A stretch of DNA of 31,992 nt from a bacterium (lineage in GTDB: Bacteria > Zhuqueibacterota > Zhuqueibacteria > Zhuqueibacterales > Zhuqueibacteraceae): positions 1 through 31,992 of the forward strand of contig JBIOXB010000053.1 in NCBI GenBank assembly GCA_044869275.1, in the 5' to 3' direction. Below the pieces are notes generated by a model. The model was not told where the DNA came from, did not search any database, and saw only the letters and a list, made by a program, of their open reading frames with translations. The translations under genes and the position numbers were made by a program. The stretch's first letter is position 1. The number at the start of each line of letters is the position of its first letter. This document shows, in pieces, positions 1,136-28,889 of the stretch.

Positions 1136-1828
1136 ATGGCCAAAATCGCCGTCGTCATTCCCGCCTATAACGAAGCCCTTTCCATCGGCAAAGTCGTTGC
1201 AGAAATCCCCAAAAAACTGATCCATGAAATTATCGTCGTAGACAATGCTTCTACTGATGATACGGCCAGGATCGCGCAGGCAGCGGGCGCGCGCGTCGAA
1301 TACGAGCCGGAGCCGGGCTATGGCGCTGCCTGTTTGCGTGGCATCGCCAAAGCCAAAGAACTCGGCGCTGATTTGATCGTGTTCATGGACGGCGACTACA
1401 GCGACTACGGCGACGAGATTGGGCTTTTACTCGATCCCATTCTCAAAAACGAATGCGACATGGTCATCGGCTCGCGCGCATTGGGAGTGGCGGAGAAAGG
1501 CGCGCTCACGCCACAGCAGCGTTATGGCAACCAACTCGCATGTTTTCTCATGCGCCATCTGCTCGGCGCGCATTACACCGATCTCGGTCCGTTTCGTGCA
1601 ATCTCTATGTCAGCCTTGGACAAAATCGGCATGCGGGACCGCAACTATGGCTGGACCGTGGAAATGCAAATCAAAGCGCATGAGAAGGGGCTGCGCGTGA
1701 AGGAAGTTCCAGTGCGCTATCGCAAGCGCATCGGCAAGTCCAAAGTCTCGGGCACGGTGAAAGGCGTGGTCATGGCGGGATATAAGATCATCTTCACGAT
1801 TCTGCGGCACGGCCGGTGGGGAGTGTGA
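1136..1828 (+). CDS. Glycosyltransferase family 2 (DPM1-like)
   Basis: VVIPAYNE, IIVVDNASTD, GYGAA, FMDGD, VIGSR, EVPVRYRKR.GKSK motifs; GGGAG upstream. Confidence 0.92.
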   Translation: MAKIAVVIPAYNEALSIGKVVAEIPKKLIHEIIVVDNASTDDTARIAQAAGARVEYEPEPGYGAACLRGIAKAKELGADLIVFMDGDYSDYGDEIGLLLDPILKNECDMVIGSRALGVAEKGALTPQQRYGNQLACFLMRHLLGAHYTDLGPFRAISMSALDKIGMRDRNYGWTVEMQIKAHEKGLRVKEVPVRYRKRIGKSKVSGTVKGVVMAGYKIIFTILRHGRWGV

Positions 1829-2024
1829 GACGGGGTGACTGGGAGGCAAGGTGACTGGGGGACTGGGAGATTGGGAGACGGGGAGATGGGGAGACGGGGA
1901 GATTGGGGGACTGGGAGATTGGGAGCGTACAACCAGCCCATCTCACCCACTCACCCCGTCTCCCCATCACCCCATCACCCCATCTCCCCATCTCCCCATC
2001 TCCCCATCTCCCCATCTCCCCGTC
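1826..2024. repeat. Inverted array of 8-bp G-rich/C-rich tandem repeats
   Basis: About 12 GGGAGA(C/T)(G/T)-like units (1826-1925), a short spacer, then complementary CCCCATC(T/A) units (about 1937-2024). Confidence 0.9.
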
Positions 2025-2053
2025 TCGAAGTCCCAACTCGCGGATGTTTTCAC

Positions 2054-2082
2054 TTGACTTTTCTTGACTTCAAAACTACATT
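2054..2082 (+). promoter_or_regulatory. Putative sigma70 promoter for the DAK2-DegV/plsY run
   Basis: TTGACT (2054)-17 nt-TACATT (2077) in an AT-rich stretch upstream of the gene. Confidence 0.4.
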
Positions 2083-2163
2083 TATAAGTCTTTTCCCTGT
2101 GCTGCTTTAATTAAGTGTAATACTGTAAATAGTACGTTGCTCACTCAGCGGAGAATGCTGCGC

Positions 2164-3957
2164 ATGCCAGTCACCTATTTGGATGGTCCGCGTTTGAAGC
2201 ACGCCGTGGTAGCCGGAGCGCAGCGGCTGATTTCAATGCAAGAGCAACTTAACAACATCAACGTCTTTCCCGTGCCCGACGCCGACACCGGCACCAACAT
2301 GGCGCTCACCATGCGCAGCGTGGCCGATGGCGCATTGAATTGCAATGAAAGCTCGGTGCATGCCATGAGTGTGGCTTTGGCCGATTCCGCTTTGATGGGG
2401 GCACGTGGCAATTCCGGGGCTATTCTGGCGCAATTCTTTCAGGGATTGTCCGAAGGTTTTCAAGGCAAAGCGCGCTCGAGTATCTCTGATTTCGCCCGTG
2501 CGGTCAATCATGCCTCGCGCGCCTCGCGCGAAGCCATCGCCGAGCCGCGCGATGGCACCATTCTCACCGTGATTCAAGATTGGGCCATATATATTCAGGA
2601 AACTTGGGGAAAAGCCGCGGATTTTCCCACGTTGATTCGCCAGTCCTTGCGCGCCGCGACCGATTCGCTGCAGCGCACGCCGGAAAAACTCAAAGTGCTG
2701 GCCAAGGCCGGCGTGGTCGATGCCGGCGCGCAAGGCTTCGTGCATTTGCTCGAAGGCATTACCAGCTTCATGCAATCCGGCAAGATCGAGCGGCTCGCGC
2801 GCGGCGTGCTGAATTTTGCCAATATCAAAGCGAAGGTCGAAGAATCGCCGGAGGCGATCACGTTTCAATATTGCACGCAAGCCTTTGTGGTGGGAACCGA
2901 CATCGATCGCCAGGCCCTCAAAATGCGTCTGCAGCCGCTGGGCGATTCCATGATTGTCGCGGGCTCGAATGCGCGCGTGCGCATTCACATTCACACCAAT
3001 GAGCCGGAGAAAGTTTTTACCCTGGCGCGCGAGTACGGCGAATTGACGGACGCGCGCCACGACGACATGCGCAACCAGCACCATGCCGCGCATCACGATC
3101 CTGAAAAACAAACCGTGGCGATCATCACCGATTCCTCCTGCGATCTGCCTTCGGATGATTTCATCAAAAAAAACATCCGCATGGTGCCGGTGCTGGTGAT
3201 TTTCGGCAACAACAGCTACGTCGATAAAGTCACCATCACCGATCGCGAGTTTTATCGCATGCTGGAGGAATCGCCCAAGCCGCCGACGACTTCGCAGCCG
3301 GCGCCGGCGGATTTTCGCGAGGCGTATCAGCAGGCGGCGCTCAATCATCGCGAAGCCGTGGCGATCATTCTCTCGGGCGCGGCCAGCGGTACGCTGCAGG
3401 CCGCGGCGCGCGCGGCGGAGATGGTGAAGAATGATATCAAAGTGCGCGTCATCGATTCCAAAAATGTAACCGTGGGGCTGGGCTTGATCGTGCGCGAAGC
3501 GGCCGAACTGGCGGCGGCGGGCGCGAGCGTCGAGGAAATCATACAGCGTGCGGAATGGGCGGTGCGCAACGTGCGCGTCTTCATCAGCGTGGAAACCATG
3601 ACGCATCTGGTGCGCGGCGGGCGAGTTTCGCGATTTCGCGGCGTGCTCGCCAACTTGTTGAATCTCAAGCCGATTCTCGTCATGAATGCGGAGGGCAAGC
3701 CGGAAGCGGTGGCCAAGACCTTCGGCGGGCGGTCCGGGCATCTCAAGCTTTTCGAAATGGTCAAGGAACAAGCCGCGCGCCGTCGCAATTTGCGCTTTAT
3801 GGTCGCGCATGCCCGTGCACCCGAAACCGCCGCATTTTACGCCGACCAAATTCGCCGGCATTTCGAGGCGCGCGAGATTCCTATCGTTTCCGTTTCGCCC
3901 GCACTCGGGGCGCATGCCGGCCCGGGCGCTGCCGGCATTGCATTTTTAGGAGAATGA
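2164..3957 (+). CDS. DAK2 (FakA-like) / DegV (FakB-like) fusion, putative fatty acid kinase
   Basis: N-terminal LNNINVFPVPDADTGTNM, GARGNSG, GVVDAGAQG; middle YCT..RIHIHT; C-terminal DegV motifs ITDSSCDL, TTSQP, SGT, RGGR, HAGPG. GGAG at 2150 favours ATG 2164 (2155 is an alternative). Confidence 0.88.
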   Translation: MPVTYLDGPRLKHAVVAGAQRLISMQEQLNNINVFPVPDADTGTNMALTMRSVADGALNCNESSVHAMSVALADSALMGARGNSGAILAQFFQGLSEGFQGKARSSISDFARAVNHASRASREAIAEPRDGTILTVIQDWAIYIQETWGKAADFPTLIRQSLRAATDSLQRTPEKLKVLAKAGVVDAGAQGFVHLLEGITSFMQSGKIERLARGVLNFANIKAKVEESPEAITFQYCTQAFVVGTDIDRQALKMRLQPLGDSMIVAGSNARVRIHIHTNEPEKVFTLAREYGELTDARHDDMRNQHHAAHHDPEKQTVAIITDSSCDLPSDDFIKKNIRMVPVLVIFGNNSYVDKVTITDREFYRMLEESPKPPTTSQPAPADFREAYQQAALNHREAVAIILSGAASGTLQAAARAAEMVKNDIKVRVIDSKNVTVGLGLIVREAAELAAAGASVEEIIQRAEWAVRNVRVFISVETMTHLVRGGRVSRFRGVLANLLNLKPILVMNAEGKPEAVAKTFGGRSGHLKLFEMVKEQAARRRNLRFMVAHARAPETAAFYADQIRRHFEAREIPIVSVSPALGAHAGPGAAGIAFLGE

Positions 3958-3960
3958 GAG

Positions 3961-4035
3961 GTGAGGCGTAATAGGTGATTTGTAATGCGTAATACGTGAT
4001 TCGTAATTTACGCATTACGCATCACGTGTTACGAA
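3961..4035. repeat. Inverted heptamer tandem array (GTRATNC / TTACGCA)
   Basis: gtgaggc gtaatag gtgattt gtaatgc gtaatac gtgattc gtaat, then ttacgca ttacgca tcacgtg ttacgaa. Confidence 0.75.
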
Positions 4036-4082
4036 CCCTCTATCCTGGCGCAAGCCAAGCCTGCATTCTGGAGCTACCACGC

Positions 4083-4739
4083 ATGTTTTCTTTTCTTGCG
4101 GCTGTGCTCGTTTCGTATTTGGTCGGATCGATCCCGACGTCTATTGTCGCTGGAAAAGCCATGCGCGGCCGCGATTTTGATATTCGCCAGCAAGGCAGCG
4201 GCAACGCCGGCGGCACCAATGTGTTTCGCGTGCTGGGCTGGAAACCCGGCATTGTGGTTATGCTCATTGACGCCTTCAAGGGCTTCGCCGCGACTTTGTG
4301 GATCTCAAAATGGCAACCCTTCGGGCCCTCGCCCATTGGCGATGAAGTCATGCCGATTCTGTGCGGCGTGGCCGCAGTGCTCGGGCACATTTGGACGGTC
4401 TTCGCCGATTTTCGCGGTGGCAAGGGCGTGGGCACGGCGAGCGGCATGGTGGTCGCGCTCTATCCCGTGGCGGCTTTGATTTGTTTCGTGATATTCGTGG
4501 CGGTGGTTTATCTCACGCGTTATGTTTCATTGGGTTCATTGCTGGCCGCCGCCTGTTTGCCGTTGATCCTCTGGCTGGGCGAAAAATTCTTTAGGCAGGC
4601 GGTGCCCGGGCCGATGTTTCAGTTCAGCCTGGTGCTCGTCGTTTTGATTTTTTATACGCACCGCCAAAACCTTCGGCGCTTGCTGGCAGGAACGGAGAAT
4701 CGCTTCGGGCAAAAACGCGAAGCGCAGGCGCCTTCGTAA
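4083..4739 (+). CDS. plsY: Glycerol-3-phosphate acyltransferase (acyl-phosphate dependent)
   Basis: SYLVGSIP, DIRQQGSGNAGGTNVFR, DAFKG, LGHIW..F..FRGGKGV, TRYVSLGS, HRQNLRRL..GTE; GGAG RBS before ATG 4083. Confidence 0.95.
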   Translation: MFSFLAAVLVSYLVGSIPTSIVAGKAMRGRDFDIRQQGSGNAGGTNVFRVLGWKPGIVVMLIDAFKGFAATLWISKWQPFGPSPIGDEVMPILCGVAAVLGHIWTVFADFRGGKGVGTASGMVVALYPVAALICFVIFVAVVYLTRYVSLGSLLAAACLPLILWLGEKFFRQAVPGPMFQFSLVLVVLIFYTHRQNLRRLLAGTENRFGQKREAQAPS

Positions 4740-4772
4740 GGGATTTTTCTGCAAACGGATGGAGAGAATAGA

Positions 4773-5633
4773 GTGAAGAGATCGTCGAACGAAATCAAGG
4801 CTCTCATCACGCTGCTCGGCGACGAAGATGATCACGTGCGCGCGATTGCACGCGAGCACCTTTTGCAAATCGGGCGGGAGGCGGAAGAATATCTGCACGC
4901 CGCGACCGTCACGGACCTCGAGGGCAAGGTTCGCATCGAAGCGCGCCACGTTTTGGAAAAAATCCGCCAGGAAGATTTGATCGGGTCCTTTTATTTGTTC
5001 GGATTGTTGGAAGACGATCAAATTGATCTGGAACACGCCGCGTTCTTGCTGGCGCGCATCGGTTATTCGGATCTGCAAATCGCGCCTTGCCAGCAAGAGC
5101 TGGATCGCCTGGCGAGGTCGATCGCGCCGCGCATCGCGCACTTGAATCCCTGGCGCGACGGCCGCGAGATTATCGAAGCGAGCAATGCCGTCTTGTTCGA
5201 GAAGGAAGGGTTCTCCGGCAATGTCGAAGAATACTATGATCCGGACAACTCTTATCTCAACCGCGTGCTCGAACGCCGTACCGGCATTCCGGTGTCGCTG
5301 TCGGTGATTTACTTGCTGGTGTCGCGGCGCCTGCATTTGCCCGTGCGCGGCGTCAGCATGCCGGTGCATTTCATTTGCCAATATCACACCCCCCAGGAAT
5401 CTTTTTATTTCGACCCTTTCAACAAGGGCCGCATCGTGACGCGCGCGGAGTGCGCGAAGATGCTGCAAGGCTCCGGCCATGTTTTCGAAGACGCATTTCT
5501 CCAGCCGGCGCCGGCCCGCAAAATCCTCGCACGCATGCTGCGCAACCTCGTCTGGATTTATTTCCAGCGTGAGGACATGGCCAAAACCGAATTGTTGGAT
5601 CGCCTTTTGAAAATGTTGCGCCCGCCGGAGTAG
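4773..5633 (+). CDS. SirB1-like / transglutaminase-like core protein with N-terminal helical region
   Basis: GFSGN..EYYDPDNSYLNRVLERRTGIPVSLS, GVSMPVHF, YFDPFNKG, ILARMLRNL; GTG start. Confidence 0.85.
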   Translation: MKRSSNEIKALITLLGDEDDHVRAIAREHLLQIGREAEEYLHAATVTDLEGKVRIEARHVLEKIRQEDLIGSFYLFGLLEDDQIDLEHAAFLLARIGYSDLQIAPCQQELDRLARSIAPRIAHLNPWRDGREIIEASNAVLFEKEGFSGNVEEYYDPDNSYLNRVLERRTGIPVSLSVIYLLVSRRLHLPVRGVSMPVHFICQYHTPQESFYFDPFNKGRIVTRAECAKMLQGSGHVFEDAFLQPAPARKILARMLRNLVWIYFQREDMAKTELLDRLLKMLRPPE

Positions 5634-5670
5634 CAGAACGCTGAATTTTTTCTATTGAAGGGAAGAGTTG

Positions 5671-6477
5671 ATGAAGTGCTCAAATTGCGGTACCGATCTG
5701 CAAGCCCATAGCCATTTTTGTTCGCATTGTGGGACTAAAGTGAATATCGCAGGCAATGATAAGTGCGCCGCGTGTGGCGCGGCGTTGAAGGCGAACGCCA
5801 GATTTTGCCAGCAATGCGGCCATGCCGTAGCGGAGCCGGGAGCGAGCGGATTGGCGCCGAATATGGAACAAGAAATTTTTGCCGCCGAGGAAAAGCCGCA
5901 GCGGCCGGTATGGATGACGTTGTTGCCTTTGCTTGGCAGCATTGCGGTGGTCGGCATTTTATTTCTGCTCTTTTACCCGCGCTCCAATCCGCAGCCGGCA
6001 GCTATGCCGGCCGGCAGTGGCCAGGCCGCGCCGAGTCAGAATGAAGAATTCGACATGTCGGCGATGGCGCCGGTGTTCCGGCAAATTGATTCACTCAAAA
6101 GCACGGTCGCACAAGATCCCAAAAACGTCGAGGCCTTGACGCATTTGGCGGCCCTGTACGACATGGCGGGCAAATACGACCAGGCGGCGATCTACTATAA
6201 TGACATTCTCAAAGCCATGCCCGAAAACGTCGAAGCCCGCATGAATCTTGCTGGTGCGTATTTCAATCTTGGGCAGCGCGAGCAAGCTCTGGCGGAGTTG
6301 AGTACCGTGTTGAAGTATCGCCCAAACTACGACTACGCCATGTACAACATGGGCGTCATCTACGCGGCGATGTCTGAAACCGGCAAAGCACGGGAATGGT
6401 GGAACAAAGTCATGACCGGCAGCCCCACCAGCGATCTGGCGCGCCGCGCCATGGAGGGGATGAAGATGTTGAAGTAG
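5671..6477 (+). CDS. Double zinc-ribbon, single TM, TPR protein
   Basis: CSNCG..FCSHCG and CAACG..FCQQCG; hydrophobic helix LLPLLGSIAVVGILFLLF; C-terminal TPR-like repeats. Confidence 0.8.
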   Translation: MKCSNCGTDLQAHSHFCSHCGTKVNIAGNDKCAACGAALKANARFCQQCGHAVAEPGASGLAPNMEQEIFAAEEKPQRPVWMTLLPLLGSIAVVGILFLLFYPRSNPQPAAMPAGSGQAAPSQNEEFDMSAMAPVFRQIDSLKSTVAQDPKNVEALTHLAALYDMAGKYDQAAIYYNDILKAMPENVEARMNLAGAYFNLGQREQALAELSTVLKYRPNYDYAMYNMGVIYAAMSETGKAREWWNKVMTGSPTSDLARRAMEGMKMLK

Positions 6478-6507
6478 TGATGAGCGTAGGCAGAAAAGCT
6501 ACCTTAA

Positions 6508-6568
6508 TTTTGTAAAACGTTACACGTTACACCTTACACGTGTAAAGTGTAAAGTGTAACGTGCAAAA
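6508..6568. repeat. Inverted heptamer array (TTACACG x3 / TGTAAAG x3), no spacer
   Basis: cgttaca cgttaca ccttaca cg tgtaaag tgtaaag tgtaacg, centred on CACGTG. Confidence 0.8.
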
Positions 6569-6621
6569 AAAACCTTTGTCTTCTGCGAAGAGATGATTTT
6601 TGCTCAAAGGAGGAAGCAGGA

Positions 6622-7038
6622 ATGCCGACCGTCTATTTCGAGGCCGAGAATCGCAAGGTGGAAGTGCCCGAAGGAACGACGCTGCGTAAAGCGGCGAAAA
6701 AAGCCGGGGTGAGCGTCTATGGCAGCGTCAATAAAGTTCTGAACTGCCGCGGTTTCGGTTTGTGCGGCACCGATCGCGTGCTGGTGTCGCCGCATGAATG
6801 CATCAACCAGCCAACCTTCTTCGAGAAATTGTCCGCCGGCGAGAATGCGAAGGTGCGGTTGGCATGCCAGACGAAAATCGCCGGTGACGTCGTGGTCGAC
6901 ACTGCCCCCGCCATGGAATTCGGCATCGAAATGCTCGATACGTTCAAATTCGGTTTGCTTGCCGGTGTGTTTGGACTCCTCACTTTGGCCGCGATCATCT
7001 TCATGATATTTGAGATGGTTGGCAAGCCTCTCTTCTAA
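6622..7038 (+). CDS. Beta-grasp 2Fe-2S ferredoxin-like protein with C-terminal membrane helix
   Basis: VEVPEGTTLR, NCRGFGLCGTD, RLACQ; hydrophobic C-terminus; AGGAGG RBS. Confidence 0.8.
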   Translation: MPTVYFEAENRKVEVPEGTTLRKAAKKAGVSVYGSVNKVLNCRGFGLCGTDRVLVSPHECINQPTFFEKLSAGENAKVRLACQTKIAGDVVVDTAPAMEFGIEMLDTFKFGLLAGVFGLLTLAAIIFMIFEMVGKPLF

Positions 7039-7044
7039 AAACAA

Positions 7045-7205
7045 GGATTGATGGAATGTTGGATCGATGGATTGATGGATCGATGGATCGATGGATCGAT
7101 GGATTGACAGATTAATGGATTAATGGAAACTCATTACTTCATCATTCCAATAATCCATCAATCCAGTAATCCAGCAATCCAATAATCCATCAATCCTGCA
7201 ATCCA
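7045..7205. repeat. Inverted 8-bp tandem array (GGAT(T/C)GAT / AATCCANN)
   Basis: About 10 GGATYGAT-like units, then about 7 complementary units after a short spacer. Confidence 0.9.
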
Positions 7206-7239
7206 AACTGCCACTTTGTAAAATTCTTGGTCAACTGGG

Positions 7240-7560
7240 ATGCCTCGTTTCGAAAAGCACATATTCATTTGCACCAATGAACGCCCGCCGGAGGATCCCA
7301 AAGGCTGCTGCGCGGCGAAAAACGCGCGGGAAATCGCGGCATGTTTCAAACAAGAGCTGCACCGGCGAGGTTTGAAGGGCAAAATACGCGCGAATAAGGC
7401 GGGTTGTTTGGACTTGTGCGAGCTCGGGCCGACGGTGGTGGTTTATCCCGAAGGCATTTGGTATAAACAGGTCACGATAGCGGACGTGCCGGAAATCATC
7501 GAATCGCATTTGCTCGGCAATCGCCCAGTGGAAAGATTGCGCGTGGCCGATGATGCTTGA
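7240..7560 (+). CDS. Thioredoxin-like (2Fe-2S) ferredoxin
   Basis: HIFICTNER..KGCC, RANKAGCLDLCELGPTVVVYPEGIWY, IIESHL..PVERL. Confidence 0.9.
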   Translation: MPRFEKHIFICTNERPPEDPKGCCAAKNAREIAACFKQELHRRGLKGKIRANKAGCLDLCELGPTVVVYPEGIWYKQVTIADVPEIIESHLLGNRPVERLRVADDA

Positions 7561-7625
7561 CAGCGGCTGCGCACGGCCGAAATGAAGGAAAGGGATGAAC
7601 CAAAACACTAAACCGTGAGGGCGGA

Positions 7626-9401
7626 ATGACGCCTCGCTCCATCCATGATCTCCTGCAAGAGGTGTGCGCCAAGTACGCCAGTCAGACAGCCTATCAATAC
7701 AAACGCCAAGGAAGCTGGAAGAATGTGACCTGGGCGGACCATCAAATCGCGTGTCAAAAAATCGCAAAAAGCCTGATCGCGCTCGGCATGAAAAAGGGCG
7801 AGCGCGTGGGCATTCTGAGCCAGACGCGGCTGGAATGGGTGCAATGTGATTTCGGCATCATCAGCAGCGGCGGGGTGACCGTCGGCATTTATCCCACCAA
7901 TCTCGCGCCGGATTGCGCCTATATCGTCAATCATAGCGACATGCAGATTGCTTTTGTTGAAAACAAGGAACAATTGGACAAGCTATTTTCTGTGCGCGCT
8001 GATATTTCCCGTGTGCGCAGATTCATTCTTTACCAGGGGCCGGGCGACGCGGAGAAAAATGTCTTGTCTTGGGAGGATTTTTTAGAGCTTGGGCAAAGCC
8101 TTGACGACGCCGCGCTGGCGGAGCGCGTGCAGAGTTTGCAGCCGGACGACCTCGCCTCTTTGGTATATACTTCCGGCACCACGGGCGTGCCCAAAGGCGC
8201 CATGATCACCCATCGCAATCTGATTTTTGTCGCGCAGTCGGCTTCGGACTCCCTGTACCTGCGTAGCGATTTCGTTACGCTGCTGTTTCTGCCGCTGGCG
8301 CACGTGTTTGCCCGCCTCATTGTGTATTTTTGCATGCGCAACGGTATTGCCATCGCCTTTGCCGAGAGCATCGAGAAAGTAGCGGAGAATTTGAAAGAAG
8401 TCCGGCCGCACTTTATCGCGAGCGTGCCGCGCATATTCGAGAAAATCTACACCAAGGTCCTGAGCGGGGTGCAGCAGGCCGGCGGCCTCAAAGCCGCTTT
8501 GTTCCACTGGGCTTTGCACACCGGCTCTCAGGTCAGCGGCTTGCAGCAGAAGCAGCAAAGGATTCCCGCATTGCTGCGCCGCAAACATGCCGTGGCCCGC
8601 AAGCTGGTGCTGCACAAAATCGAGGATGCCTTCGGCGGCCGATTGCTCTGGGCGGTTTCGGGCGCGGCACCGTTGAACAAGAGCATCGCGGAATTCTTTC
8701 ACGCCTGCGGCGTGTTGATTCTCGAAGGCATCGGCATGACGGAAAACACCTCATTCACCAACGTGAATCGTTACGACCACAACAAATTCGGCACCGTTGG
8801 GCCGGTGGGGCCGGGCCTCGAAATGAAGCTAGCGCCGGACGGCGAAATTCTGTTCCGGGGCCCGAACGTGATGAAAGGGTATTTCAAAGACCCGCAAGCC
8901 ACGACGGAAGCCATCGATCAGGAAGGCTGGCTGCACAGCGGCGACGTCGGTGAAATTGATGAAGAAGGCTTCCTCAAAATCACCGATCGCAAAAAGGATT
9001 TGATCATCACCGCCGGCGGCAAGAACATCGCGCCGCAGCGCATCGAGAAGATACTGTGCACTTCGCCCTTCATCAGCCAGGCCATGGCTTTTGGCGACCG
9101 GAAAAAATACGTGACGGCCTTGATCACGCTCAACCCGGATAATGTCGTACCCTGGGCCAAAACGCAAGGCCTGACCTTCAAAGATATGGCAGAGCTGGCA
9201 CAGCATCCGCGGGTGAAAGAACTGATTGATAAAGAAGTCGACGAAAAAAACCAAATGCTGGCTTCGTTCGAATCCGTCAAAAAAATACGCATTCTGACCA
9301 AGGATTTTTCGATTGCCGATGGTGAATTGACGCCGACCTTGAAAATCAAGCGCAAGAAGGTAACGGAAAAGTATCGCGAGGTATTGGAAGAGATGTATTA
9401 A
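7626..9401 (+). CDS. Long-chain fatty acid--CoA ligase (AMP-binding, FadD15-like)
   Basis: YTSGTTGVPKG, LPLAHVF, SGAAPL, EGIGMTE, GWLHSGDVG, ITDRKKDLII..GGKNIAP, LTPTLKIKR. Confidence 0.93.
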   Translation: MTPRSIHDLLQEVCAKYASQTAYQYKRQGSWKNVTWADHQIACQKIAKSLIALGMKKGERVGILSQTRLEWVQCDFGIISSGGVTVGIYPTNLAPDCAYIVNHSDMQIAFVENKEQLDKLFSVRADISRVRRFILYQGPGDAEKNVLSWEDFLELGQSLDDAALAERVQSLQPDDLASLVYTSGTTGVPKGAMITHRNLIFVAQSASDSLYLRSDFVTLLFLPLAHVFARLIVYFCMRNGIAIAFAESIEKVAENLKEVRPHFIASVPRIFEKIYTKVLSGVQQAGGLKAALFHWALHTGSQVSGLQQKQQRIPALLRRKHAVARKLVLHKIEDAFGGRLLWAVSGAAPLNKSIAEFFHACGVLILEGIGMTENTSFTNVNRYDHNKFGTVGPVGPGLEMKLAPDGEILFRGPNVMKGYFKDPQATTEAIDQEGWLHSGDVGEIDEEGFLKITDRKKDLIITAGGKNIAPQRIEKILCTSPFISQAMAFGDRKKYVTALITLNPDNVVPWAKTQGLTFKDMAELAQHPRVKELIDKEVDEKNQMLASFESVKKIRILTKDFSIADGELTPTLKIKRKKVTEKYREVLEEMY

Positions 9402-9444
9402 ACAAATAGCTGTTACCGCAGACCCTCCTTATCAAGACCCATAA

Positions 9445-9571
9445 TGTGTGAAAACTTGGGAAGGCCGCACCCTGAGCGCCGACGAAAGGTGCTGCCTTCG
9501 ACAAGCTCAGGCTGCGATAGCCTCAGGCTTCGACAAGCTCAGCCTGCGTTGGCGCCAAGCGTTTTCACACA
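9445..9571. mobile_element. Putative MITE: 11-bp perfect terminal inverted repeats enclosing CTTCGACAAGCTCAG REP-like units
   Basis: TGTGTGAAAAC (9445-9455) / GTTTTCACACA (9561-9571); inside lie CCTGAGCGCCGACGAAAGG and two CTTCGACAAGCTCAG copies. Confidence 0.55.
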
Positions 9572-10071
9572 GCCCGACCCCTCCTGAATGAATACGCTGA
9601 ACACGATGAGGTGAACGCTGTTTCGCACAATGGCGGCGTTTGGCTTTCGTGTTTTGCTTTTTTCAGTTCCTTCCCCGCTGCAACGCGCTCAAAATTTTAG
9701 CGCAGTTCTCCTTCGCGAATCTGGAATTCCCATACTTGACAAAAGGCTTTAATTCACCTGCGCTTGCCGCCTCTTAGCGAGATCGCCGGTTGTCAAGCGG
9801 CGTCTATTGAGAGTGGCTACGGCTTACCGAGTCTTGTCTGGTGGACAGAGTGACATGATGCTGCTGGATGTAGAGGTTAGGAAAAATAGTACGACTGAAG
9901 ATCAAAAAGAAATGTAAGAGAATTTCAGGGGAGGATGTTTCTGTCCAAATAGAAGGATGAACAGGCAAAAACAACCAGGATTGCAAAAACAGGACGAGCA
10001 GGACGGCTATCCGGTGTTGTTCCTGGATCATTCCAAAGTCAACTTTCAACCTCTAACCAAGGAGAAGTACG

Positions 10072-10911
10072 ATGTACGATCAAACTCAAGATGTCGATGA
10101 GATCGTTCTCAAAACCAATGGCAATGGCGCCTCCGCCAAAGCGGACACCCTGGCTGCCGGCCGGAAACCCTCCGCCAAGAGCGTCTCGATGCTTTCCACC
10201 CTGGGAATGGAAGCAGATCTCCAAGTCACCGGATCGGGACTCGTCGAGCTGCCGCGCAATCTTCACGGAAAAGTCCAATCCTTTATGGATGACTACAAGG
10301 CTTACCTGGAAGACCGCACCGAGCTCTACGCGAAACGCCAGGCTGCAGAACAAATGAAGCTGCGTCGCGGGGCTGCGATAGAAGCGGGAGAGCCCACCGT
10401 CGGCAATTACGTCGCGTGGGATTTGCTGACCATCGGCCCCGTCCAGTTCATCGGTCCACCGCCATATCGGCCGCACAAGATCGTCGCGAGCAATGAATTC
10501 GCCGTGGTCTTTGTAGTGTTGTTCGTCAATCCCACCGTCAGCGTCGCCGAAGGTTTTGCGATCCCGGCCACCGAGCAGTTGGGTGGCAGACGTTTTCGCA
10601 TCCGCGGCGAACAAATCAACCTGACCAATGTGTCGAATGGTCCAGATTTCACCATCAACGGCACTTTCAGCTCGCCTGCTCCAGTGGTCAGCATTTTCGC
10701 ATTTGTTATTCCGCCGACTGATCCCGGCGTGAATCCGCTCTTGCGAGAATTGAATGTGACCGCCGACATCAGGGACTTGGCACAGCACTACGCGGCGTTC
10801 AGCACCAACTTGTTGGATATCGACGCGGAGCCGGGATTCCTCGGCGTGCCCGCCGTGCCGCCTCAGTTGCAGCATGATATCCCGCTGCGGTACATGATTT
10901 ACCGGTTCTAA
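10072..10911 (+). CDS. Hypothetical protein, 279 aa, first gene of the protease/SLT locus
   Basis: AAGGAG RBS, host-like codon usage, polar N-terminal ~100 aa followed by a Pro-rich, beta-strand-like region; no family recognised. Confidence 0.8.
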   Translation: MYDQTQDVDEIVLKTNGNGASAKADTLAAGRKPSAKSVSMLSTLGMEADLQVTGSGLVELPRNLHGKVQSFMDDYKAYLEDRTELYAKRQAAEQMKLRRGAAIEAGEPTVGNYVAWDLLTIGPVQFIGPPPYRPHKIVASNEFAVVFVVLFVNPTVSVAEGFAIPATEQLGGRRFRIRGEQINLTNVSNGPDFTINGTFSSPAPVVSIFAFVIPPTDPGVNPLLRELNVTADIRDLAQHYAAFSTNLLDIDAEPGFLGVPAVPPQLQHDIPLRYMIYRF

Positions 10912-10930
10912 GAGCGCTTGGGCTCTTTTT
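10910..10930 (+). terminator. Short intrinsic terminator candidate after the hypothetical gene
   Basis: AAGAGC-gcttgg-GCTCTT followed by TTT, overlapping the stop codon. Confidence 0.45.
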
Positions 10931-10943
10931 CGACCTCAGACTT

Positions 10944-10976
10944 TGACGCGCTTGGCCAACCTCGCCAAGCGCGTCA
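10944..10976. repeat. Perfect 13-bp stem-loop in the intergenic region
   Basis: TGACGCGCTTGGC-caacctc-GCCAAGCGCGTCA. Confidence 0.8.
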
Positions 10977-11089
10977 GAATGAGCTCGAAACCGGCCCTCA
11001 AGGAGCAAAACTTTTTTTGATTTGAGAAATGAGCGTGATTTTGGCGAATTGCACTTGGCCATTTTCGCATGCTCGATAGAGGAATGATC

Positions 11090-12067
11090 ATGTTCGACAC
11101 CTCACAACAAGAATTCCGCCAAGCTCTGGCGGCGCACGAGCATGCGGTCGCGCTGCATTTGCTCGATCCGAACGTCACGCTCATTGATTTGGGACTGCGC
11201 ATCAAAGAAGCACAAGGCCGGTTGATGACGCGAGAATTGGCCGTGCGTGTTCATCTCAAGCACAAGCCCCGGGGGGAGGCTTTCAGAGCCTTTGCCTCCG
11301 CCCAGCCGGCGCGGGTGATCACGGAGCGCAGCGTGGGATTTCCCGTGGATCTCATCCAAGCCGAATACAATTTGCACCGTTCCTGGTGGTGGCCACGCCC
11401 GCGCGCGTTGCGCGCCCAGATGCACAACCCGCTGCGCGGCGGCATTAGTATTTCGAATGAGTGGGAATATGGCTTCGGCACGCTCGGCGGGTTTGTCAAA
11501 GACCGGCAAACCGGCGCACCCATGATTTTGAGCAATTGGCACGTGCTCGCGGTTGCAGACGGCGCAGAGGTGGAAGCGGCCATCCTTCAGCCCGGATACG
11601 GCGATGGCGGGAATGCGCGCCATGTGGTAGCGCATCTGAGGCGCGATGCCATGCGACGCGGCCTCGACGCCGCAGTGGCTGAGCTCAACCAGTCGCGCGC
11701 GATCCGCAACGAGCAACTGGAGATCGGTCCGGTGACCGGCGTGGGCGGGCCGGAACTGGGCATGCGCGTGCACAAATCCGGACGTGCGTCGGGACACACG
11801 CACGGCATCGTTGACGGCATCGCCGGCAAACATAAGATCTACTATCACGGCTTTCCGCGCATCGTGGATCACGTCATCCATATCGCACCCCTGACCGTGG
11901 GCGGAGAAGTGAGCGCGCCGGGTGATTCAGGTTCATGGTGGCTGGAGGAATACTCGGACAAGGTGGTCGGTCTGCACCTGGCCGGCAGCAACGATCCCGA
12001 GTATGGGTTAGCGCATGGCATGCAGGAAGTGCTGGACGCGCTGAATGTGGACATTGTCACGCATTGA
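11090..12067 (+). CDS. Trypsin-like (clan PA) serine protease with N-terminal extra domain, no signal peptide
   Basis: GTLGGFV, ILSNWHVLA (His, 11540), LDAAVA (Asp), KSGRASG.T.G, PGDSGS (Ser, 11927), VVGLH. Start 11090 chosen from RBS spacing and alignment with the paralogous domain at 12964. Confidence 0.85.
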   Translation: MFDTSQQEFRQALAAHEHAVALHLLDPNVTLIDLGLRIKEAQGRLMTRELAVRVHLKHKPRGEAFRAFASAQPARVITERSVGFPVDLIQAEYNLHRSWWWPRPRALRAQMHNPLRGGISISNEWEYGFGTLGGFVKDRQTGAPMILSNWHVLAVADGAEVEAAILQPGYGDGGNARHVVAHLRRDAMRRGLDAAVAELNQSRAIRNEQLEIGPVTGVGGPELGMRVHKSGRASGHTHGIVDGIAGKHKIYYHGFPRIVDHVIHIAPLTVGGEVSAPGDSGSWWLEEYSDKVVGLHLAGSNDPEYGLAHGMQEVLDALNVDIVTH

Positions 12068-12096
12068 GATTATCTGAAGCAAAGAGGAGCAACGTT

Positions 12097-12948
12097 ATGT
12101 CTACGTCAAATGCCAAGCCGCGGCGGAAGAAAAGATGGTCCGAGGCCGCCACGGCGCAGACGGCAAATCAAGCAGAGCCGGGCGCTGCGGTGCAAGCAGA
12201 ATTTCAGCGGCCCGCACCCTCGCTCCGGCGCGACGACCTGTTGTTGATCTCGGGCATTGGCCCGGTGACCGAAATGGCGTTGAACAGCATCGGAATAGCA
12301 CGCTATCAAGATTTCGCAGGCTACACGCCGGAAAGCCTGGCGCAAGCCCTGCAAGCGCGCTTTGGCATCTCCGTTCCAACCGCCATGATCGAAAGCCAGG
12401 ATTGGATCGGCGCAGCACTGGCGCTGGCCAGGCAAAAGGTGATATCGGCGCCGGGAACCAACGCGCCAGAACCTGCTTTCGGGGCGCAGTTTTCATCCCG
12501 GGTTGCCGGGCAATCCCAAACCCGTGCACCGGAGCAGGGCGCCAAGGACGAAAAATCCAAAGACGCCACCACACCGCACGATGGCATTCAAATTCAAAAA
12601 GTCAGTGTCACACCAAGCACAAGCCCGGCAGCGACGGAGCAGAGCAGTGAGAATCTTCTACGAGCGGAAATCAATTGGACGTGGGCTGGAGATCGTGCCA
12701 GGCAGGGCCTAGCTGAACGCATACCACTTTGCTTCCAGATACATGCGATTCACGCGGAAGCGGGAACCGCCCGGCTTTTGGCGGCTCATTCCCGCCTCTG
12801 GTCACTCGATGAGAGGGAGGAGACTATCGTGATCGAGTTTCAAGCTCCTCTCGCAGGGCGATACGTGTTGCACACCGTGGTGTTCTCGTTGCACGATCCC
12901 TCCATGATGGTTTTCCAGAAGGGCCCGCGCTTGCACGTCGTTTCATGA
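12097..12948 (+). CDS. Helix-hairpin-helix domain protein with low-complexity linker and unknown C-terminal beta domain
   Basis: DDLLLISGIGPVTEMALNSIGI..YQDFA...IESQDWIGAA motif; GAGGAG RBS before ATG 12097. Confidence 0.75.
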   Translation: MSTSNAKPRRKKRWSEAATAQTANQAEPGAAVQAEFQRPAPSLRRDDLLLISGIGPVTEMALNSIGIARYQDFAGYTPESLAQALQARFGISVPTAMIESQDWIGAALALARQKVISAPGTNAPEPAFGAQFSSRVAGQSQTRAPEQGAKDEKSKDATTPHDGIQIQKVSVTPSTSPAATEQSSENLLRAEINWTWAGDRARQGLAERIPLCFQIHAIHAEAGTARLLAAHSRLWSLDEREETIVIEFQAPLAGRYVLHTVVFSLHDPSMMVFQKGPRLHVVS

Positions 12949-12963
12949 TGGGGCAACCTCGAT

Positions 12964-14145
12964 ATGATACACCTCGATGCCACAACCTGGCAGGCGGCGC
13001 GCCGCGGCCTGCAGCGCGCCGTGACTTTGCATCTGCACGATCCCAATGTGACTCTGATCGATCTTGGCTATCTTGCCGGGCCAGGCGCGGCACCGGAGTT
13101 GGTGATCCGCGTGCATGTGCGCCGCAAGCTGCACGGGAAGAAATTTGAAACTTTCCGCTCCCGCCATCCGGAGCGCGTCATTTCCGCCGAGCACATTGGC
13201 TTTTCCGTGGGGTTGCATTGGGGAGGCAGCAAGCAACCCGCCGTGGCGCTCGCCTTTTCCATGCCGGAAATGCTGCGCGCCCTGAACGTTGAGATGCCAG
13301 CCACTGCTCCCAGGCCCTCGTTCCCGGCCGGAAGTTTGGAGCAAGTTGATGAAACGCCGCCGGCAAACCCTCCAGAGCCGGTGGAGCCGCAGCCTTTGTT
13401 TTCGTTGAAGTCTCGCGTGCGCGGTTTTTTTTACGCGGTGGCTTTGAGCTCAATCGTGGCTTTGGCTGCCAGTGCGAAGCTGCGAGCCGAGGATCAACGG
13501 CTTTCGCAAGAGAGCGACCATTGCCGCAGGCAAATCCAGTATTTGTCTGGCGTGGCGCAGCTTGACAGTTTGCGCCGGCGCGATCTGGAGAAAATTTTGG
13601 AGATCATGGCCTCTCACAATCCGGAAATGCGATCGGATTTGAGAAACGAGATCGCCAGCCTCATTCACGAGATGAGCCGCAAGTATGCGAACCTGAGCCC
13701 GGAACTGATTTGCGCCACGATCACACATGAATCGGCCCGGACCTGGGATCCCGCGATCGTGTCTTCCGTGGGCGCGTTGGGCTTGATGCAAATCATGCCT
13801 GCCACCGGCCGCAGGCTGGCGGAAATGGAAGGGATGGCATGGACTTCCGCCCCGGAAATGCTCAAGCATCCCATGATCAATATTCGTTTGGGATGCCGTT
13901 ATCTCTCAATGCTGGTTGCTGCCTATAGTCTTGAGGGCGGCTTGGCGGCATACAATGGCGGCGAATGGCGCGCGGAACAATGGCTGCGTGCTGGCCGCGC
14001 GCCCGGCATACTGCGCGAGGAAACGGCAAATTATGTTCCTGCGATTTTGCGTTTATACGACCAGTATCGCCGCGCGCCAACCGCGGATTCGGAGGAGTTC
14101 CGGCCAATGGCACAAGTCTCGAAACGATCGCGCGCTGTGGAGTGA
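12964..14145 (+). CDS. Membrane-anchored lytic transglycosylase (SLT domain) with protease-derived N-terminal domain
   Basis: ITHES (catalytic Glu), GALGLMQIMPAT, NIRLGCRYL, LAAYNGG, ETANYV; central hydrophobic helix FFYAVALSSIVALAA; N-terminal 111 aa similar to both termini of the upstream protease. Confidence 0.85.
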   Translation: MIHLDATTWQAARRGLQRAVTLHLHDPNVTLIDLGYLAGPGAAPELVIRVHVRRKLHGKKFETFRSRHPERVISAEHIGFSVGLHWGGSKQPAVALAFSMPEMLRALNVEMPATAPRPSFPAGSLEQVDETPPANPPEPVEPQPLFSLKSRVRGFFYAVALSSIVALAASAKLRAEDQRLSQESDHCRRQIQYLSGVAQLDSLRRRDLEKILEIMASHNPEMRSDLRNEIASLIHEMSRKYANLSPELICATITHESARTWDPAIVSSVGALGLMQIMPATGRRLAEMEGMAWTSAPEMLKHPMINIRLGCRYLSMLVAAYSLEGGLAAYNGGEWRAEQWLRAGRAPGILREETANYVPAILRLYDQYRRAPTADSEEFRPMAQVSKRSRAVE

Positions 14146-14620
14146 GAAAGAAGAGTACGCTGTCACCGCAAAAAACATGCTTCCAACCATATCATCCCGC
14201 AGCGACAGCGATTCTTTATAGGATATTTGTTAGACTCTTTAATACATACTGGCCACCAAGATTAATTTGACCAATGCAAAGCCACGATAGAATTAAAATC
14301 CGCCTCATCCGCGCCATCCGTGGTCAAAGAAGTATGAAAAATTGCTTTTGAATAGTCTCTGCCGTTGCGGGATCCTGGTAAAAAGAAGTGCCGCGCAAGT
14401 CGAAACTTGCACGGCACGACGCGGTGGGGGAAATCGATATGCTTGAGTCGTCACACTGTGTTTTGGCCAGACGCAGTATAACCCCGCCATGTTAAGATTC
14501 GGTAAAGCAGAGTTGAAGAATGTGTGAAGTTTGTCGGAGGCACTCAGAGCGTTGTGTCAACCGGTATAGCCTGAATGGACACGGAATCCAAGTTAAAATG
14601 AAGAGATCAGAACTAGGAGG

Positions 14621-15514
14621 TTACGGTGTGATCTGCAGCCTCCCGCCCTCGCGCCGCATGGGAATTTGCAGATAATTTGGGCTCAGGCTTTCGAGATTGG
14701 GGCCCAATGCCGTCATCATCTCGAGCGGCAGGCTTTGATGCCGGATCAGAATGTATGGAATCACTTCATATTCGCCCGGCGGAAGCGGAAGACTGATCAA
14801 GCTGAGCGCGGCGTTGCGAACATGCTGCTGTGCGGAACTGAGAGTCACTCTTTCCCGTACGCTGCCGAGCGCTGAAGTTTTATAGATGAAAACCTGCGGC
14901 TGGCTGGCACTGAGACTGCGAAGGAGCAGCGCTCCCATGAGATTGCCGGCGCCGGGTGTTTCGGGGATAATGATGCTGACGGAGTCGCCCAGGGCTTGCA
15001 AGGATACTTGGACGTCGATGAGTTGGGTGGTGCTGGACGGCACCGAAGTGGGTGTGAGCACGGTGTTGATACGCAGAAATTTTCTCAAAGAAGTGGTGTT
15101 GACGATCTCGCCGTTTTGGTTGATGTCCGCTTCGGAATAAATGAATGCGCCGTTGCGCGTGGCGACGGTGGCGGTATTAGAGCTATAGTTGGCCAGATAA
15201 TAATAAAGATTGAAGAAGCCGGTGGCACCGCCATTGCCGCCTTGTGCCCCGGGCGGCGGCAAGGTCAGCGAAAATTTTCCGCCGGCGTCCGCGCGCGACC
15301 CCAGATTAAAGCTCTCCAGCCAGACAAAAGTCCCCTCGGGACTGGCGCGATCATTGAGCTGCACCGTGCCATTGACGGAGCGTGTGCCTCCTGAAATCTT
15401 GTCATCGCTGTTAAAGGGATTTTCGATGCAGCCCGCAAGCGGCAAGAGAGCCAGTAAAAGAATGGGGCAGGGCGCTTTCAGCCGCCGCTTCGAAAGCAAT
15501 GGTTGTCGCAACAT
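14621..15514 (-). CDS. Hypothetical lipoprotein
   Basis: Lipobox LLPLAGC; GAGGAGG RBS; beta-rich N-terminal domain. Confidence 0.75.
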   Translation of the reverse strand: MLRQPLLSKRRLKAPCPILLLALLPLAGCIENPFNSDDKISGGTRSVNGTVQLNDRASPEGTFVWLESFNLGSRADAGGKFSLTLPPPGAQGGNGGATGFFNLYYYLANYSSNTATVATRNGAFIYSEADINQNGEIVNTTSLRKFLRINTVLTPTSVPSSTTQLIDVQVSLQALGDSVSIIIPETPGAGNLMGALLLRSLSASQPQVFIYKTSALGSVRERVTLSSAQQHVRNAALSLISLPLPPGEYEVIPYILIRHQSLPLEMMTALGPNLESLSPNYLQIPMRREGGRLQITP

Positions 15515-15821: not shown

Positions 15822-16196
15822 CTATTCCGAGTTCTTCAGTTTGCCGCTTGCCGTGCGAATGCTGGCACTGGTGATTTTCGAAAGCTCGGTGCATTCCTGC
15901 ATTAAAGGTTGAATGATGTCCCACCGCAACATCTCACTGCGCTTGACCATTTCCAGCCAAATGCCGGATTCGTTCAGTTCTTTCAAGACGATTCCCAGCT
16001 TATGGACAAAATCGTTCGCACTTTCTGCACCACGAGCTTCGCCATAATTCGGCGCTGGTGAAGTACCGCAACGCAACAACTGCCCGGCAACATGATTTCC
16101 CGCTTTGGTCTTGGGCAAGGATGAAGACAGTTTGATCATTGCTACAGCGAAATCAATCAAGCGGTTTTGAATATCGTCCCCTTTTGCCATTTTCAT
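15822..16196 (-). CDS. Four helix bundle protein (TIGR02436 / 23S rRNA IVP / bAvd-like family)
   Basis: DIQNRLIDFAV, QLLRCGTS..PNYGEARGAES..DFVHKLGIVLKELNES..WL; GAGGGG RBS. Confidence 0.9.
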   Translation of the reverse strand: MKMAKGDDIQNRLIDFAVAMIKLSSSLPKTKAGNHVAGQLLRCGTSPAPNYGEARGAESANDFVHKLGIVLKELNESGIWLEMVKRSEMLRWDIIQPLMQECTELSKITSASIRTASGKLKNSE

Positions 16197-28300: not shown

Positions 28301-28889
28301 GGCAATTCCGGGTGGCGGCGATGACGGCTCCTTCTACAATGTACTGGCGACCGACAACACGCTCCGCCGCACGGTCCTTGTCAACTGGAACGGCGGTAGT
28401 GTCACCGACCCGACCTACCCGGCAAACTTGAATCAAGCTCTACCGGAAACCGGCACCGTGTTTCGCTTGGTCACCACCAAGCCGAATACGCCGAACGACT
28501 CTTTCACGTTTAAGTCCCCGGCACCGACGGTGACGAAAGACTTGCAGGCTGCCAGCTTCAAGTTGATCAATGTTTTTCCGAATCCGTACTATGCTTTCAA
28601 CCCGGCGGAAGAGACCACGCTCAGCCGCTTCGTGACGTTCAACAACTTGCCGCCGACGGCCACGATCCGCATCTTCAACCTGGCTGGCCAGTTGGTGCGC
28701 ACGCTGGAGAAAAACGACGATCCCGTGCAGTTCATGCAATGGAACCTGCAGAATCAAATCGGTTTGCCTGTGGCGAGCGGCATGTACATCGCGTATGTCG
28801 AGGGCGTGCTCTCAGCGACCGGTGAAAAGGTGAGCAAAGTTCTGAAACTGGCCGTGATTCAAGAGCAGGAAATCTTGGATATATTCTAA
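25311..28889 (+). CDS. Large secreted protein with T9SS-type / FlgD-Ig-like C-terminal sorting domain
   Basis: Signal peptide; FEGYNVYQ FN3-like region; C-terminal NVFPNPY...FNNLP..ATIRIFNLAGQLVRTL..WNLQNQ.GLPVASGMYI. Confidence 0.8.
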   Translation: MRKKGLSLRILLAAGVALIMAMGSLALAKERPAGEKQDRQQSLSKITGDPRWQILNINNFTTWARNDGQSNHTPRGIDGGLFPRGTRTLIYQDGLMWGGKCYVDAALTIPAPNSQLIRVGGANYVVGSREGWIIGSGAAAVAANPGDARARAFRIRRDYFFMSDGEVQRDAAESNEIAEASVSSAQMQTIRSNYDADWKDWPVDLGAPYIERNGTPGYQPPPAFSDAFTPDHLISGTYDEPGLAGADPNSPADQVIWLVYNDLDPNQTLGLEGSEPMGLEVQVTLWGYKRTDALGNIYFKRYKFTNKGGVSVDAAGTKGAFYINEMYACQWSDPDMGNAGDDILGNDSTLSVGFIYNANGIDSEYNKFRLPPPCAGYDFLQGPIVASPGDSGVFNLERVYDKKNLGMTSFTYFSAGSPFSDPTGGYSTSTLRWYKLMRGFAPTDGDDQYYPVPPGYDFTKYPLSGDPVKQTGFLDGQGTQYSFPPGDRRLLCNTGPFSLNPGETQEVVVATVGGLGADRLSSVAVMKFNDQFAQNTYNALFQVAKPPSAPAITVNNMDREAVIEWGSNLSRVADTENKINNPGGYTFEGYNVYQFPTRSGGLADAVRIATYDLTTDPSVVLNTVFDIESGQILSIPVQFGTNSGVQRLFSFTRDYVRDIDALYNGQDYFLGITSYSVSTVPGFLPAALESEAQVIVVTPKKPFGTVYEENGAPIALGDTLKNVSHVGPSDGAAYPLVINSSTLNGHDYKVVFKDDGTGTGATIWDLIDVTANNKVVLANVANQSGDEQYAFTDGFQLRIVGAPNSFKNFLVTANGAGPLDPPEIGCFAFNNSGFPFYEGADRPSDRQQVGAGLWGIHTADNGTRANFQPFLDRTSNNGANWANIIPYDWEMRFTATGGYAYDAFVTAKVIQVPFELWRIGIGTPNDPSDDVRFVPYMLDDDESGTYNLCATHPNAGADDHSISGGDNDPYTDWVYWATPTDVTPGDAGYKAWEAAALAIPGGGDDGSFYNVLATDNTLRRTVLVNWNGGSVTDPTYPANLNQALPETGTVFRLVTTKPNTPNDSFTFKSPAPTVTKDLQAASFKLINVFPNPYYAFNPAEETTLSRFVTFNNLPPTATIRIFNLAGQLVRTLEKNDDPVQFMQWNLQNQIGLPVASGMYIAYVEGVLSATGEKVSKVLKLAVIQEQEILDIF

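Follow-up and report, generated by a model that had tools for sequence, protein, structure and literature searches.

Four co-oriented genes in a 31,992-nucleotide stretch of bacterial DNA (positions 1 to 31,992 of contig JBIOXB010000053.1, assembly GCA_044869275.1, lineage Zhuqueibacterota; hereafter the window) form the KSB1 version of a conserved gene cassette. The cassette encodes an immunoglobulin (Ig)-fold protein (gene 1, product P1), a serine protease without a signal peptide (gene 2) and a protein combining a helix-hairpin-helix (HhH) with an Ig-like domain (gene 3), to which a lytic transglycosylase (SLT) domain is added here (gene 4). Close database homologues of the protease carry KSB1 names, and the window contig is C53 of the genome designated G000. 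The cassette is real, conserved and apparently undescribed in print. New here are the protease-membrane-SLT fusion as the terminal cassette gene in KSB1, the interchangeable protease slot, the travelling Ig domain, and gene 4 of the window, which its sequence identifies as a deletion product.

Organisation and conservation of the cassette

Gene 1 is an open reading frame (ORF) of 279 residues at positions 10072..10911, followed by gene 2 (11069..12067, 332 residues, or 325 in the database gene call, which starts at 11090), gene 3 (12097..12948, 283 residues) and gene 4 (12964..14145, 393 residues), all on the forward strand. For gene 3, the start at 12097 is preferred over a longer one at 11935 because it has a ribosome-binding site. 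The genes are separated by 157, 29 and 15 nt and flanked by 670 and 475 nt, which bears out the orientation, spacing and long flanks described in a first-pass annotation of this DNA. The flanks are partly composed of repeats occurring genome-wide, at 9441-9590 (147 matches on 97 contigs of the same genome) and at 14241-14380 (22 matches on 19 contigs). Pfam returned no match for gene 1, a weak Peptidase_S64 match for gene 2 and a clear SLT match for gene 4.

The same annotation had proposed a dedicated module, and the cassette is indeed conserved elsewhere. A metagenome scan with the protease alignment covered the best 80 of 269 confirmed loci, 77 of them non-duplicate. P1 is encoded directly 5' of the protease in all 59 of the non-duplicate loci that extend 500 bp or more upstream. 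Where at least 1.5 kb is available downstream, 18 of 23 loci carry an HhH/Ig gene and 17 of 23 a free gene of about 83 residues that copies the N-terminal domain of the protease. This free N-domain forms a separate branch (41 rows, SH-aLRT 99, in a quick tree of few columns), is devoid of ATP-site residues and is absent from the window. The single-contig genomes G571 and G452 carry the core cassette together with this gene. An SLT domain was found in 4 of the 16 protease loci with at least 3.5 kb downstream. The complete four-gene order of the window is identical in genomes G016, G011 and G165 and in metagenome loci L103, L112 and L129.

Regulator genes accompany most loci. A co-oriented BTAD activator gene ends at most 1.5 kb 5' of P1 in 25 of 35 loci, a count made with a profile seeded from 10 of the 35, and whose misses include all four SLT-bearing loci. 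Pfam confirmed the BTAD domain in 18 of 27 neighbours chosen by eye. In KSB1, a CHASE2 sigma-54 activator or an ECF-like sigma factor is present instead in 9 of 22 fetched stretches. Cassette lineages with other proteases (M36, S8, classical trypsin) are usually preceded by a BTAD activator.

Further genes were observed around the cassette. In the variant at L051:3011-8826, the Ig, HhH and protease-SLT genes are interspersed with genes for a tyrosinase and a heavy-metal-associated-domain protein. A small membrane protein and a short peptide starting with Cys-Cys recur within or after the cassette (L130:6890-7517, L141:3602-3997, L142:5924-6557) with no Pfam match at 1e-8; a DUF1360 label for an accessory membrane protein was not confirmed by Pfam at this threshold. 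A zinc-ribbon-like gene of 100-120 residues flanks the cassette at L153:1604-2338, L234:6143-6454, L235:8151-8489 and L236:9420-9770, and no Pfam match was obtained for the three copies scanned. Two KSB1 genomes (L041:1-5444 and L044:143-6028) have the same four genes 5' of P1, including one for a TPR-CHAT protein.

Gene 2 encodes a NAL1-type serine protease

Gene 2 encodes a cytoplasmic serine protease of the rice NARROW LEAF 1 (NAL1) type, consisting of an ATP-binding-domain homologue and a trypsin-fold domain, with a probable start at 11090. A profile of 121 gene 2 homologues has NAL1 as its best match (E 3.6e-5), spanning both domains; the single gene 2 sequence found no match among PDB sequences. 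The AlphaFold model (pLDDT 94) aligns over its whole length with NAL1 structures (Foldseek E 2.5e-17, TM 0.67-0.70), which outrank alpha-lytic protease. The N-terminal domain (11090..11368) keeps R44, K46, K66 and D94, the equivalents of NAL1 R120, R122, K139 and D166. Across the 121 homologues, the K139 position is conserved in 120 and D166 in all, R120 is Arg or Lys in 116 and R122 in 80, and the K123 position is acidic in 97. The triad codons lie within 11540..11929 (H158 at 11540, D200 at 11666, S287 at 11927). The intact triad and the missing signal peptide reported in the first-pass annotation both hold, as the three residues are invariant in 121 of 121 aligned homologues and a hydropathy scan shows no signal-like N-terminus.

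The gene 2 protease thus resembles NAL1 (PDB 8PMM, 7Y77, 8HAU) in its two domains, lack of a signal peptide, catalytic triad and conserved R120, K139 and D166 equivalents. Unlike NAL1, it begins at the first helix of the ATP-binding domain with no domain ahead of it, has an acidic residue at the K123 position and is operon-encoded, with partners on which the NAL1 paper is silent. Its catalytic domain also shares its fold with alpha-lytic protease (Foldseek E ~1e-12). Alpha-lytic-type S1 proteases are secreted and have a removable pro-region, whereas the gene 2 protease lacks a signal peptide and carries an N-domain that matches the NAL1 ATP-binding domain. In NAL1, contacts between the ATP-binding and protease domains build a trimer, and trimers come together as the active hexamer through an additional N-terminal strand (PMC12012508, available text). 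By analogy, the gene 2 protease may bind ATP and, like NAL1, assemble into an oligomer stabilised by ATP. NAL1 is a major gene for rice yield, and its ATP-stabilised protease cage is unusual. For its bacterial relatives, the cassette offers gene 1 as a candidate native substrate, the free N-domain gene as a candidate regulator, and a test system that is simple.

More distant NAL1-type proteases were also observed. One, with a lipoprotein-like N-terminus, is encoded in the same genome (G000:C4:46029-47596, forward strand) and is followed by a small gene that resembles the free N-domain by eye, unscored by the N-domain profiles. Others occur on plasmids of Rhizobium, Streptomyces and Tsukamurella, within genes annotated as non-specific endonucleases (H1-H3, H7, H8, H14, H16, H20), and at 7-13 places per record on some Clostridium plasmids.

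P1 is the constant member of the cassette

The P1 model comprises a disordered region (residues 1-46), a long helix (residues 62-98) and an Ig-like β-sandwich (residues 113-279). The P1 family, which makes up 215 clusters at 50% identity, has no Pfam, NCBIfam, PHROG or PADLOC match. A structure search of the PDB and viral libraries gave no specific fold match, and the ESM Atlas returned unnamed clusters alone, with a low recognition score. P1 was not found in the plasmid and phage collections searched. As a genome query the lone P1 sequence found no match; the P1 alignment did. P1 was found in 13 of 167 KSB1, 7 of 401 Chloroflexota and 6 of 401 Actinomycetota genomes (the latter two counts include the centre genome and come from six scored candidates per genome, and one actinomycete match is weak). 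The cassette also draws attention to cytoplasmic Ig-fold proteins that lack annotation and occur across KSB1, Chloroflexota, Actinomycetota and cyanobacteria.

The protease next to P1 changes from locus to locus. Among 38 genome loci, the adjacent protease is NAL1-type in 3, an M36 metalloprotease in 8 and a classical trypsin in 1, and locus L241 has an S8 protease as the P1 partner. The M36 partner label requires at least three changes on the P1 tree. The remaining 26 loci, all from actinomycetes and some on short contigs, have no partner in the flank. In five genomes with a solitary P1, a distant M36 match was found in one and HhH-only matches in two. P1, which accepts four kinds of protease and outlives them, looks more like a substrate with a job of its own than a fitted enzyme subunit. 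Because it alone is invariant, is found with unrelated proteases and survives by itself in one clade, we infer that P1 is both the substrate and the main subunit. A tandem P1 duplication with near-identical ends was observed at L043:5912-7746.

Gene 3 carries a mobile Ig domain

The gene 3 protein has a basic N-terminus, an HhH domain (residues 47-83), a linker and a C-terminal Ig-like domain. The HhH match to HHH_5 (E 2.3e-4) is below the Pfam cut-off; the domain resembles the kind appended to L21, S2, NuoE and the phasin PhaH, and probably binds DNA. The gene 3-type Ig domain looks like a tag that can move from one enzyme to another, being fused elsewhere to M36 (L061, L080) and S8 (L100, L241) proteases and to an SLT domain (L169).

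A paralogous operon lies in the same genome (G000:C139:82371-87020, reverse strand), encoding a 147-residue Ig protein, a 391-residue coiled-coil-Ig protein, an HhH-Ig protein and an intact 614-residue protease-membrane-SLT fusion. A CHASE2 sigma-54 activator is encoded nearby on the opposite strand (88601-91588). The Ig domain of gene 3 is homologous to both Ig-fold proteins of this operon (HHalign 89-95%, controls below 0.4%). At G000:C196:986-2791 (reverse strand), another gene of the 147-residue type precedes one for a 388-residue protein, by eye a coiled-coil-Ig partner. A third unannotated family, of about 240 residues, occupies the first-gene slot before the protease-SLT fusion at L047:46-3084, L048:6634-7311, L050:6288-7151 and L209:8215-8916, and its C-terminus shows a weak likeness to the 147-residue family (HHalign 39%).

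Gene 4 is the remnant of a protease-membrane-SLT fusion

Gene 4 encodes, in order, the protease N-domain, the C-terminal strand and helix of the protease, a predicted membrane helix, a coiled-coil-like stretch and the SLT domain. Residues 1-84 match protease residues 6-95 (45% identity), and residues 82-111 match residues 300-329 (53%). The first-pass annotation had described a domain shared by the protease and the SLT protein. The shared region is real, and since gene 4 matches the protease in two separated pieces it results from loss of an internal segment and does not represent one common domain. Judged by profile coverage (the core-column count is an alignment artefact and was not used), gene 4 covers profile positions 1-86 and 293-322 alone, with no triad and no intact protease core. 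Some 205 protease-core codons were deleted in frame at a 6-bp microhomology (13205..13210). The single predicted membrane helix (13426..13482, residues 155-173) is moderately hydrophobic, with a mean hydropathy of 1.74. The SLT domain (13684..13995, residues 241-344; Pfam E 1.7e-19, 70 bits against a cut-off of 21.3) has the catalytic Glu256 and two further motifs.

The junction itself was compared with sequence runs. Run X3, from another study and a strain differing by a few percent, has loose ends at 13210 and 13205 that overlap by six bases. Read in frame, one end continues into the protease linker (E-V-I-E-R-D-Y-E-Y-H) and the other into the protease C-terminal strand (W-W-L-D-A-E-T-G-R); this is a hand translation of 30 letters per end, and says nothing on the completeness of the relative's copy. 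Since the ends of the relative continue into protease sequence and overlap by six bases, the deletion is recent and seated at the microhomology. From these sequence comparisons, gene 4 of the window is the remnant of a fusion and the product of a recent deletion, which makes its odd architecture less important than it first appeared. We considered the N-terminal piece as an evolved adaptor and rejected this as the main explanation, as the relative has protease sequence on both sides of the junction and the gene 4 N-domain clusters with protease domains and not with the free N-domain clade. An assembly artefact is unlikely, as a single X1 contig spans the locus; X1 is possibly the source DNA and thus not independent. 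In X2, a piece with the letters of the window begins five letters ahead of the junction, too short an overlap to bridge it.

In relatives, the fusion is a chain of 565-770 residues with protease, membrane helix and SLT domain. At least 14 of 167 KSB1 genomes, spread over 5 families, have the fusion or its remnant. The SLT domain was seen in KSB1-type loci only, usually as the full fusion, and the family of its SLT half stands alone in 93 of the 167 genomes. The window genome has such a standalone membrane SLT protein at C24, about 42% identical to the gene 4 SLT domain. In all 10 loci without a standalone protease, the fused protease retains its triad and a complete core (at least 181 of 185 columns). 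Of the 10 loci with one, 1 has a complete fused core, 5 have a shortened core that keeps the triad, and 4 (the window, L041, L212 and L169) have no triad. These loci are kin and not independent, and L054 was omitted from the counts, as its contig ends. By a simple counting method, dN/dS of the fused protease is 0.18-0.33 in five pairs, compared with 0.15-0.23 in three pairs of standalone proteases; the SLT part has values of 0.11-0.15. On these ratios, selection on the fused protease part is relaxed, not neutral.

The first-pass annotation had placed the coupling of proteolysis to wall opening at the centre of the module. This does not stand as the core function, given how few of the long protease loci have an SLT domain, how widely its family stands alone in KSB1, and that the protease-like part of gene 4 is the leftover of a second full-length protease after a recent deletion. 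It is the conserved core of the cassette that matters most, and the link to wall opening is a lineage-specific addition.

Proposed mechanism and alternative explanations

Maturation of the first protein, one of the roles suggested in the first-pass annotation, is now the leading explanation, drawn from P1 invariance, the swapped proteases and its lone persistence. The cassette may encode an inducible programme in which the protease matures P1 into a scaffold on which Ig-tagged proteins dock, with local wall opening added in KSB1; we give this a probability of about 35%. A dedicated activator would switch the cassette on, and the protease would then cut P1, which would assemble into an Ig-fold scaffold. 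Ig-tagged proteins, here the HhH protein with its probable DNA binding, would dock on this scaffold, and local opening of the wall would fall to the added transglycosylase, a predicted membrane-anchored protein. In KSB1, a duplicate protease gene would have been fused to the ordinary membrane SLT gene of the phylum, the fused copy eroding where a standalone protease is also present. Because of this erosion, gene 4 of the window would act mainly as a membrane SLT protein. The purpose might be a programmed stress or developmental state, such as a DNA-associated inclusion or a released matrix, and would not be phage-triggered. More tentatively, and with rather doubtful odds, the cassette could represent a new kind of inducible assembly, in which an Ig subunit matured by proteolysis forms a scaffold in the cytoplasm, docking relies on a related Ig domain as the tag, a NAL1-like ATP-stabilised cage performs the cut and a fusion links the system to the envelope in KSB1. 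If so, one tag would load a DNA-binding domain, proteases or a wall hydrolase, and the fusion would let the product cross the wall.

Several observations weigh against maturation of P1 into a scaffold. P1 matches generic Ig folds (best Z 8.1, with many ties), and none of the matches points specifically to known Ig-fold polymers such as pilins, S-layer proteins or biofilm scaffolds. The 25 solitary actinomycete copies form one branch nested among protease-linked ones, and a NAL1-type protease was found in 0 of the 5 solitary-P1 genomes, in a search made without a positive control; from these two results, P1 can apparently do without a protease of its own. The gene 3 Ig domain has weak homology to that of P1 (HHalign 26%, E 7e-4), and HHalign detected none between the P1 Ig domain and the other first-gene families. 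The gene 2 protease is devoid of the N-terminal strand required for the active NAL1 hexamer, and the fused protease of relatives is under purifying selection, which fits a role of its own. The window locus has no adjacent activator or sigma-factor gene of the kinds found elsewhere, and promoter scans, sigma-54 sites included, gave nothing above chance.

Alternatively, the protease may perform regulatory proteolysis, turning over a neighbouring activator, sigma or anti-sigma factor. P1 would then serve as adaptor and the free N-domain as inhibitor, and the intact fusion would signal the condition of the wall to the cytoplasm. In rice, NAL1 breaks down regulators of transcription (PMC12012508, available text), a regulator gene stands beside most loci, and the predicted fusion topology has the protease inside and the SLT domain outside. 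The free N-domain, in a clade of its own and with its ATP-site residues lost, is also what a trans-acting regulator might look like. However, unrelated M36 and S8 proteases take the same slot, the protease of the fusion is repeatedly lost while the catalytic Glu of the SLT domain is retained, and the several Ig-fold paralogues are left unexplained; we hold the whole of this explanation to be on the unlikely side. The SLT domain could also be a passenger, a duplicate protease gene having fused to an ordinary KSB1 membrane SLT gene at the operon end with the two activities uncoupled. The phylum-wide standalone family with its copy at C24, the 12 of 16 long protease loci with no SLT domain and the triadless fused protease in 4 of 10 loci with a standalone one would all be expected. 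Yet the fusion or remnant has been kept across five families, where it ends several types of operon, the SLT part has the lowest dN/dS range given above, and L169 fuses the SLT domain directly to the gene 3 Ig domain; we hold a mere passenger to be unlikely.

The lysis or conflict role raised in the first-pass annotation found no support in PADLOC or in the neighbourhoods. In such an anti-phage system, infection would activate the protease, cut P1 would be a toxic effector and the SLT protein would help to lyse the cell. The patchy spread over three phyla and the swapping of parts are in keeping with this, as are the nearest plasmid relatives of the protease, annotated as non-specific endonucleases, which recall the NucA-trypsin systems (PMC7159879, available text). 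Against it, PADLOC 2.0 (2023 library) matches 0 of the 4 locus proteins, and 98 neighbouring ORFs of at least 180 residues from 29 long loci gave nothing beyond generic matches (AAA, TPR, ABC) and, in one locus, two PDC-S03 matches. As a rule, the neighbours are dedicated transcriptional activators and housekeeping genes, and P1 was not found in the plasmid and phage collections. We regard an anti-phage role as improbable, and maturation of P1 into a scaffold remains the preferred explanation.

Comparison with described systems

The first-pass annotation did not recognise this gene combination, and no described system was matched here either. In the literature searched, mostly without subscription papers and supplements, no description of the cassette or of bacterial NAL1 relatives was found. 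The available text of the NAL1 paper (PMC12012508) has no occurrence of 'bacteria' or 'prokaryot'. The cassette resembles the NucA-trypsin and Trypco-trypsin systems (Kaur et al. 2020, PMC7159879), as far as their available text describes them, in that trypsin-fold peptidases stand in multi-gene modules and are swappable; occasional peptidoglycan-attacking domains and inactive peptidase copies are likewise common to both. Unlike them, this locus has no NucA, MoxR/vWA, VMAP, STAND or Trypco component. No NucA/HNH endonuclease was found among the 22 window proteins scanned, and MoxR, vWA, VMAP and Trypco had no Pfam match in the locus proteins or in 39 scanned neighbours. HhH, fungalysin and BTAD do not occur in the available text of PMC7159879. 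The systems of PMC8195603, from its available text, share the logic of a peptidase with swappable partners, and their defining parts are absent here. The gene 4 SLT domain, with its catalytic Glu and other motifs, is like the KSB1 membrane-anchored subfamily of SLT/GH23 enzymes, but differs in being fused C-terminally to a NAL1-type protease, intact or as a remnant, in the last gene of an Ig-fold operon. GH23 was reported in all KSB1 metagenome-assembled genomes examined (PMC9012183, available text).

Other genes in the window

A lipid-metabolism run at 1136-9401 (forward strand) includes a DAK2-DegV fusion, PlsY and an acyl-CoA ligase, together with transglutaminase-like, zinc-ribbon-TPR and ferredoxin-like genes; it is unlinked to the cassette in the relatives viewed. 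Downstream of the cassette, a lipoprotein-like gene of 297 residues lies at 14621-15514 (reverse strand). A gene of 1192 residues with no Pfam match (25311-28889, forward strand) stands between a TonB-dependent receptor gene and a PorV-like gene (28980-30038, forward strand). The window also encodes an IS200-like transposase at 111-779 and a 23S rRNA intervening-sequence family protein at 15822-16196, both on the reverse strand.

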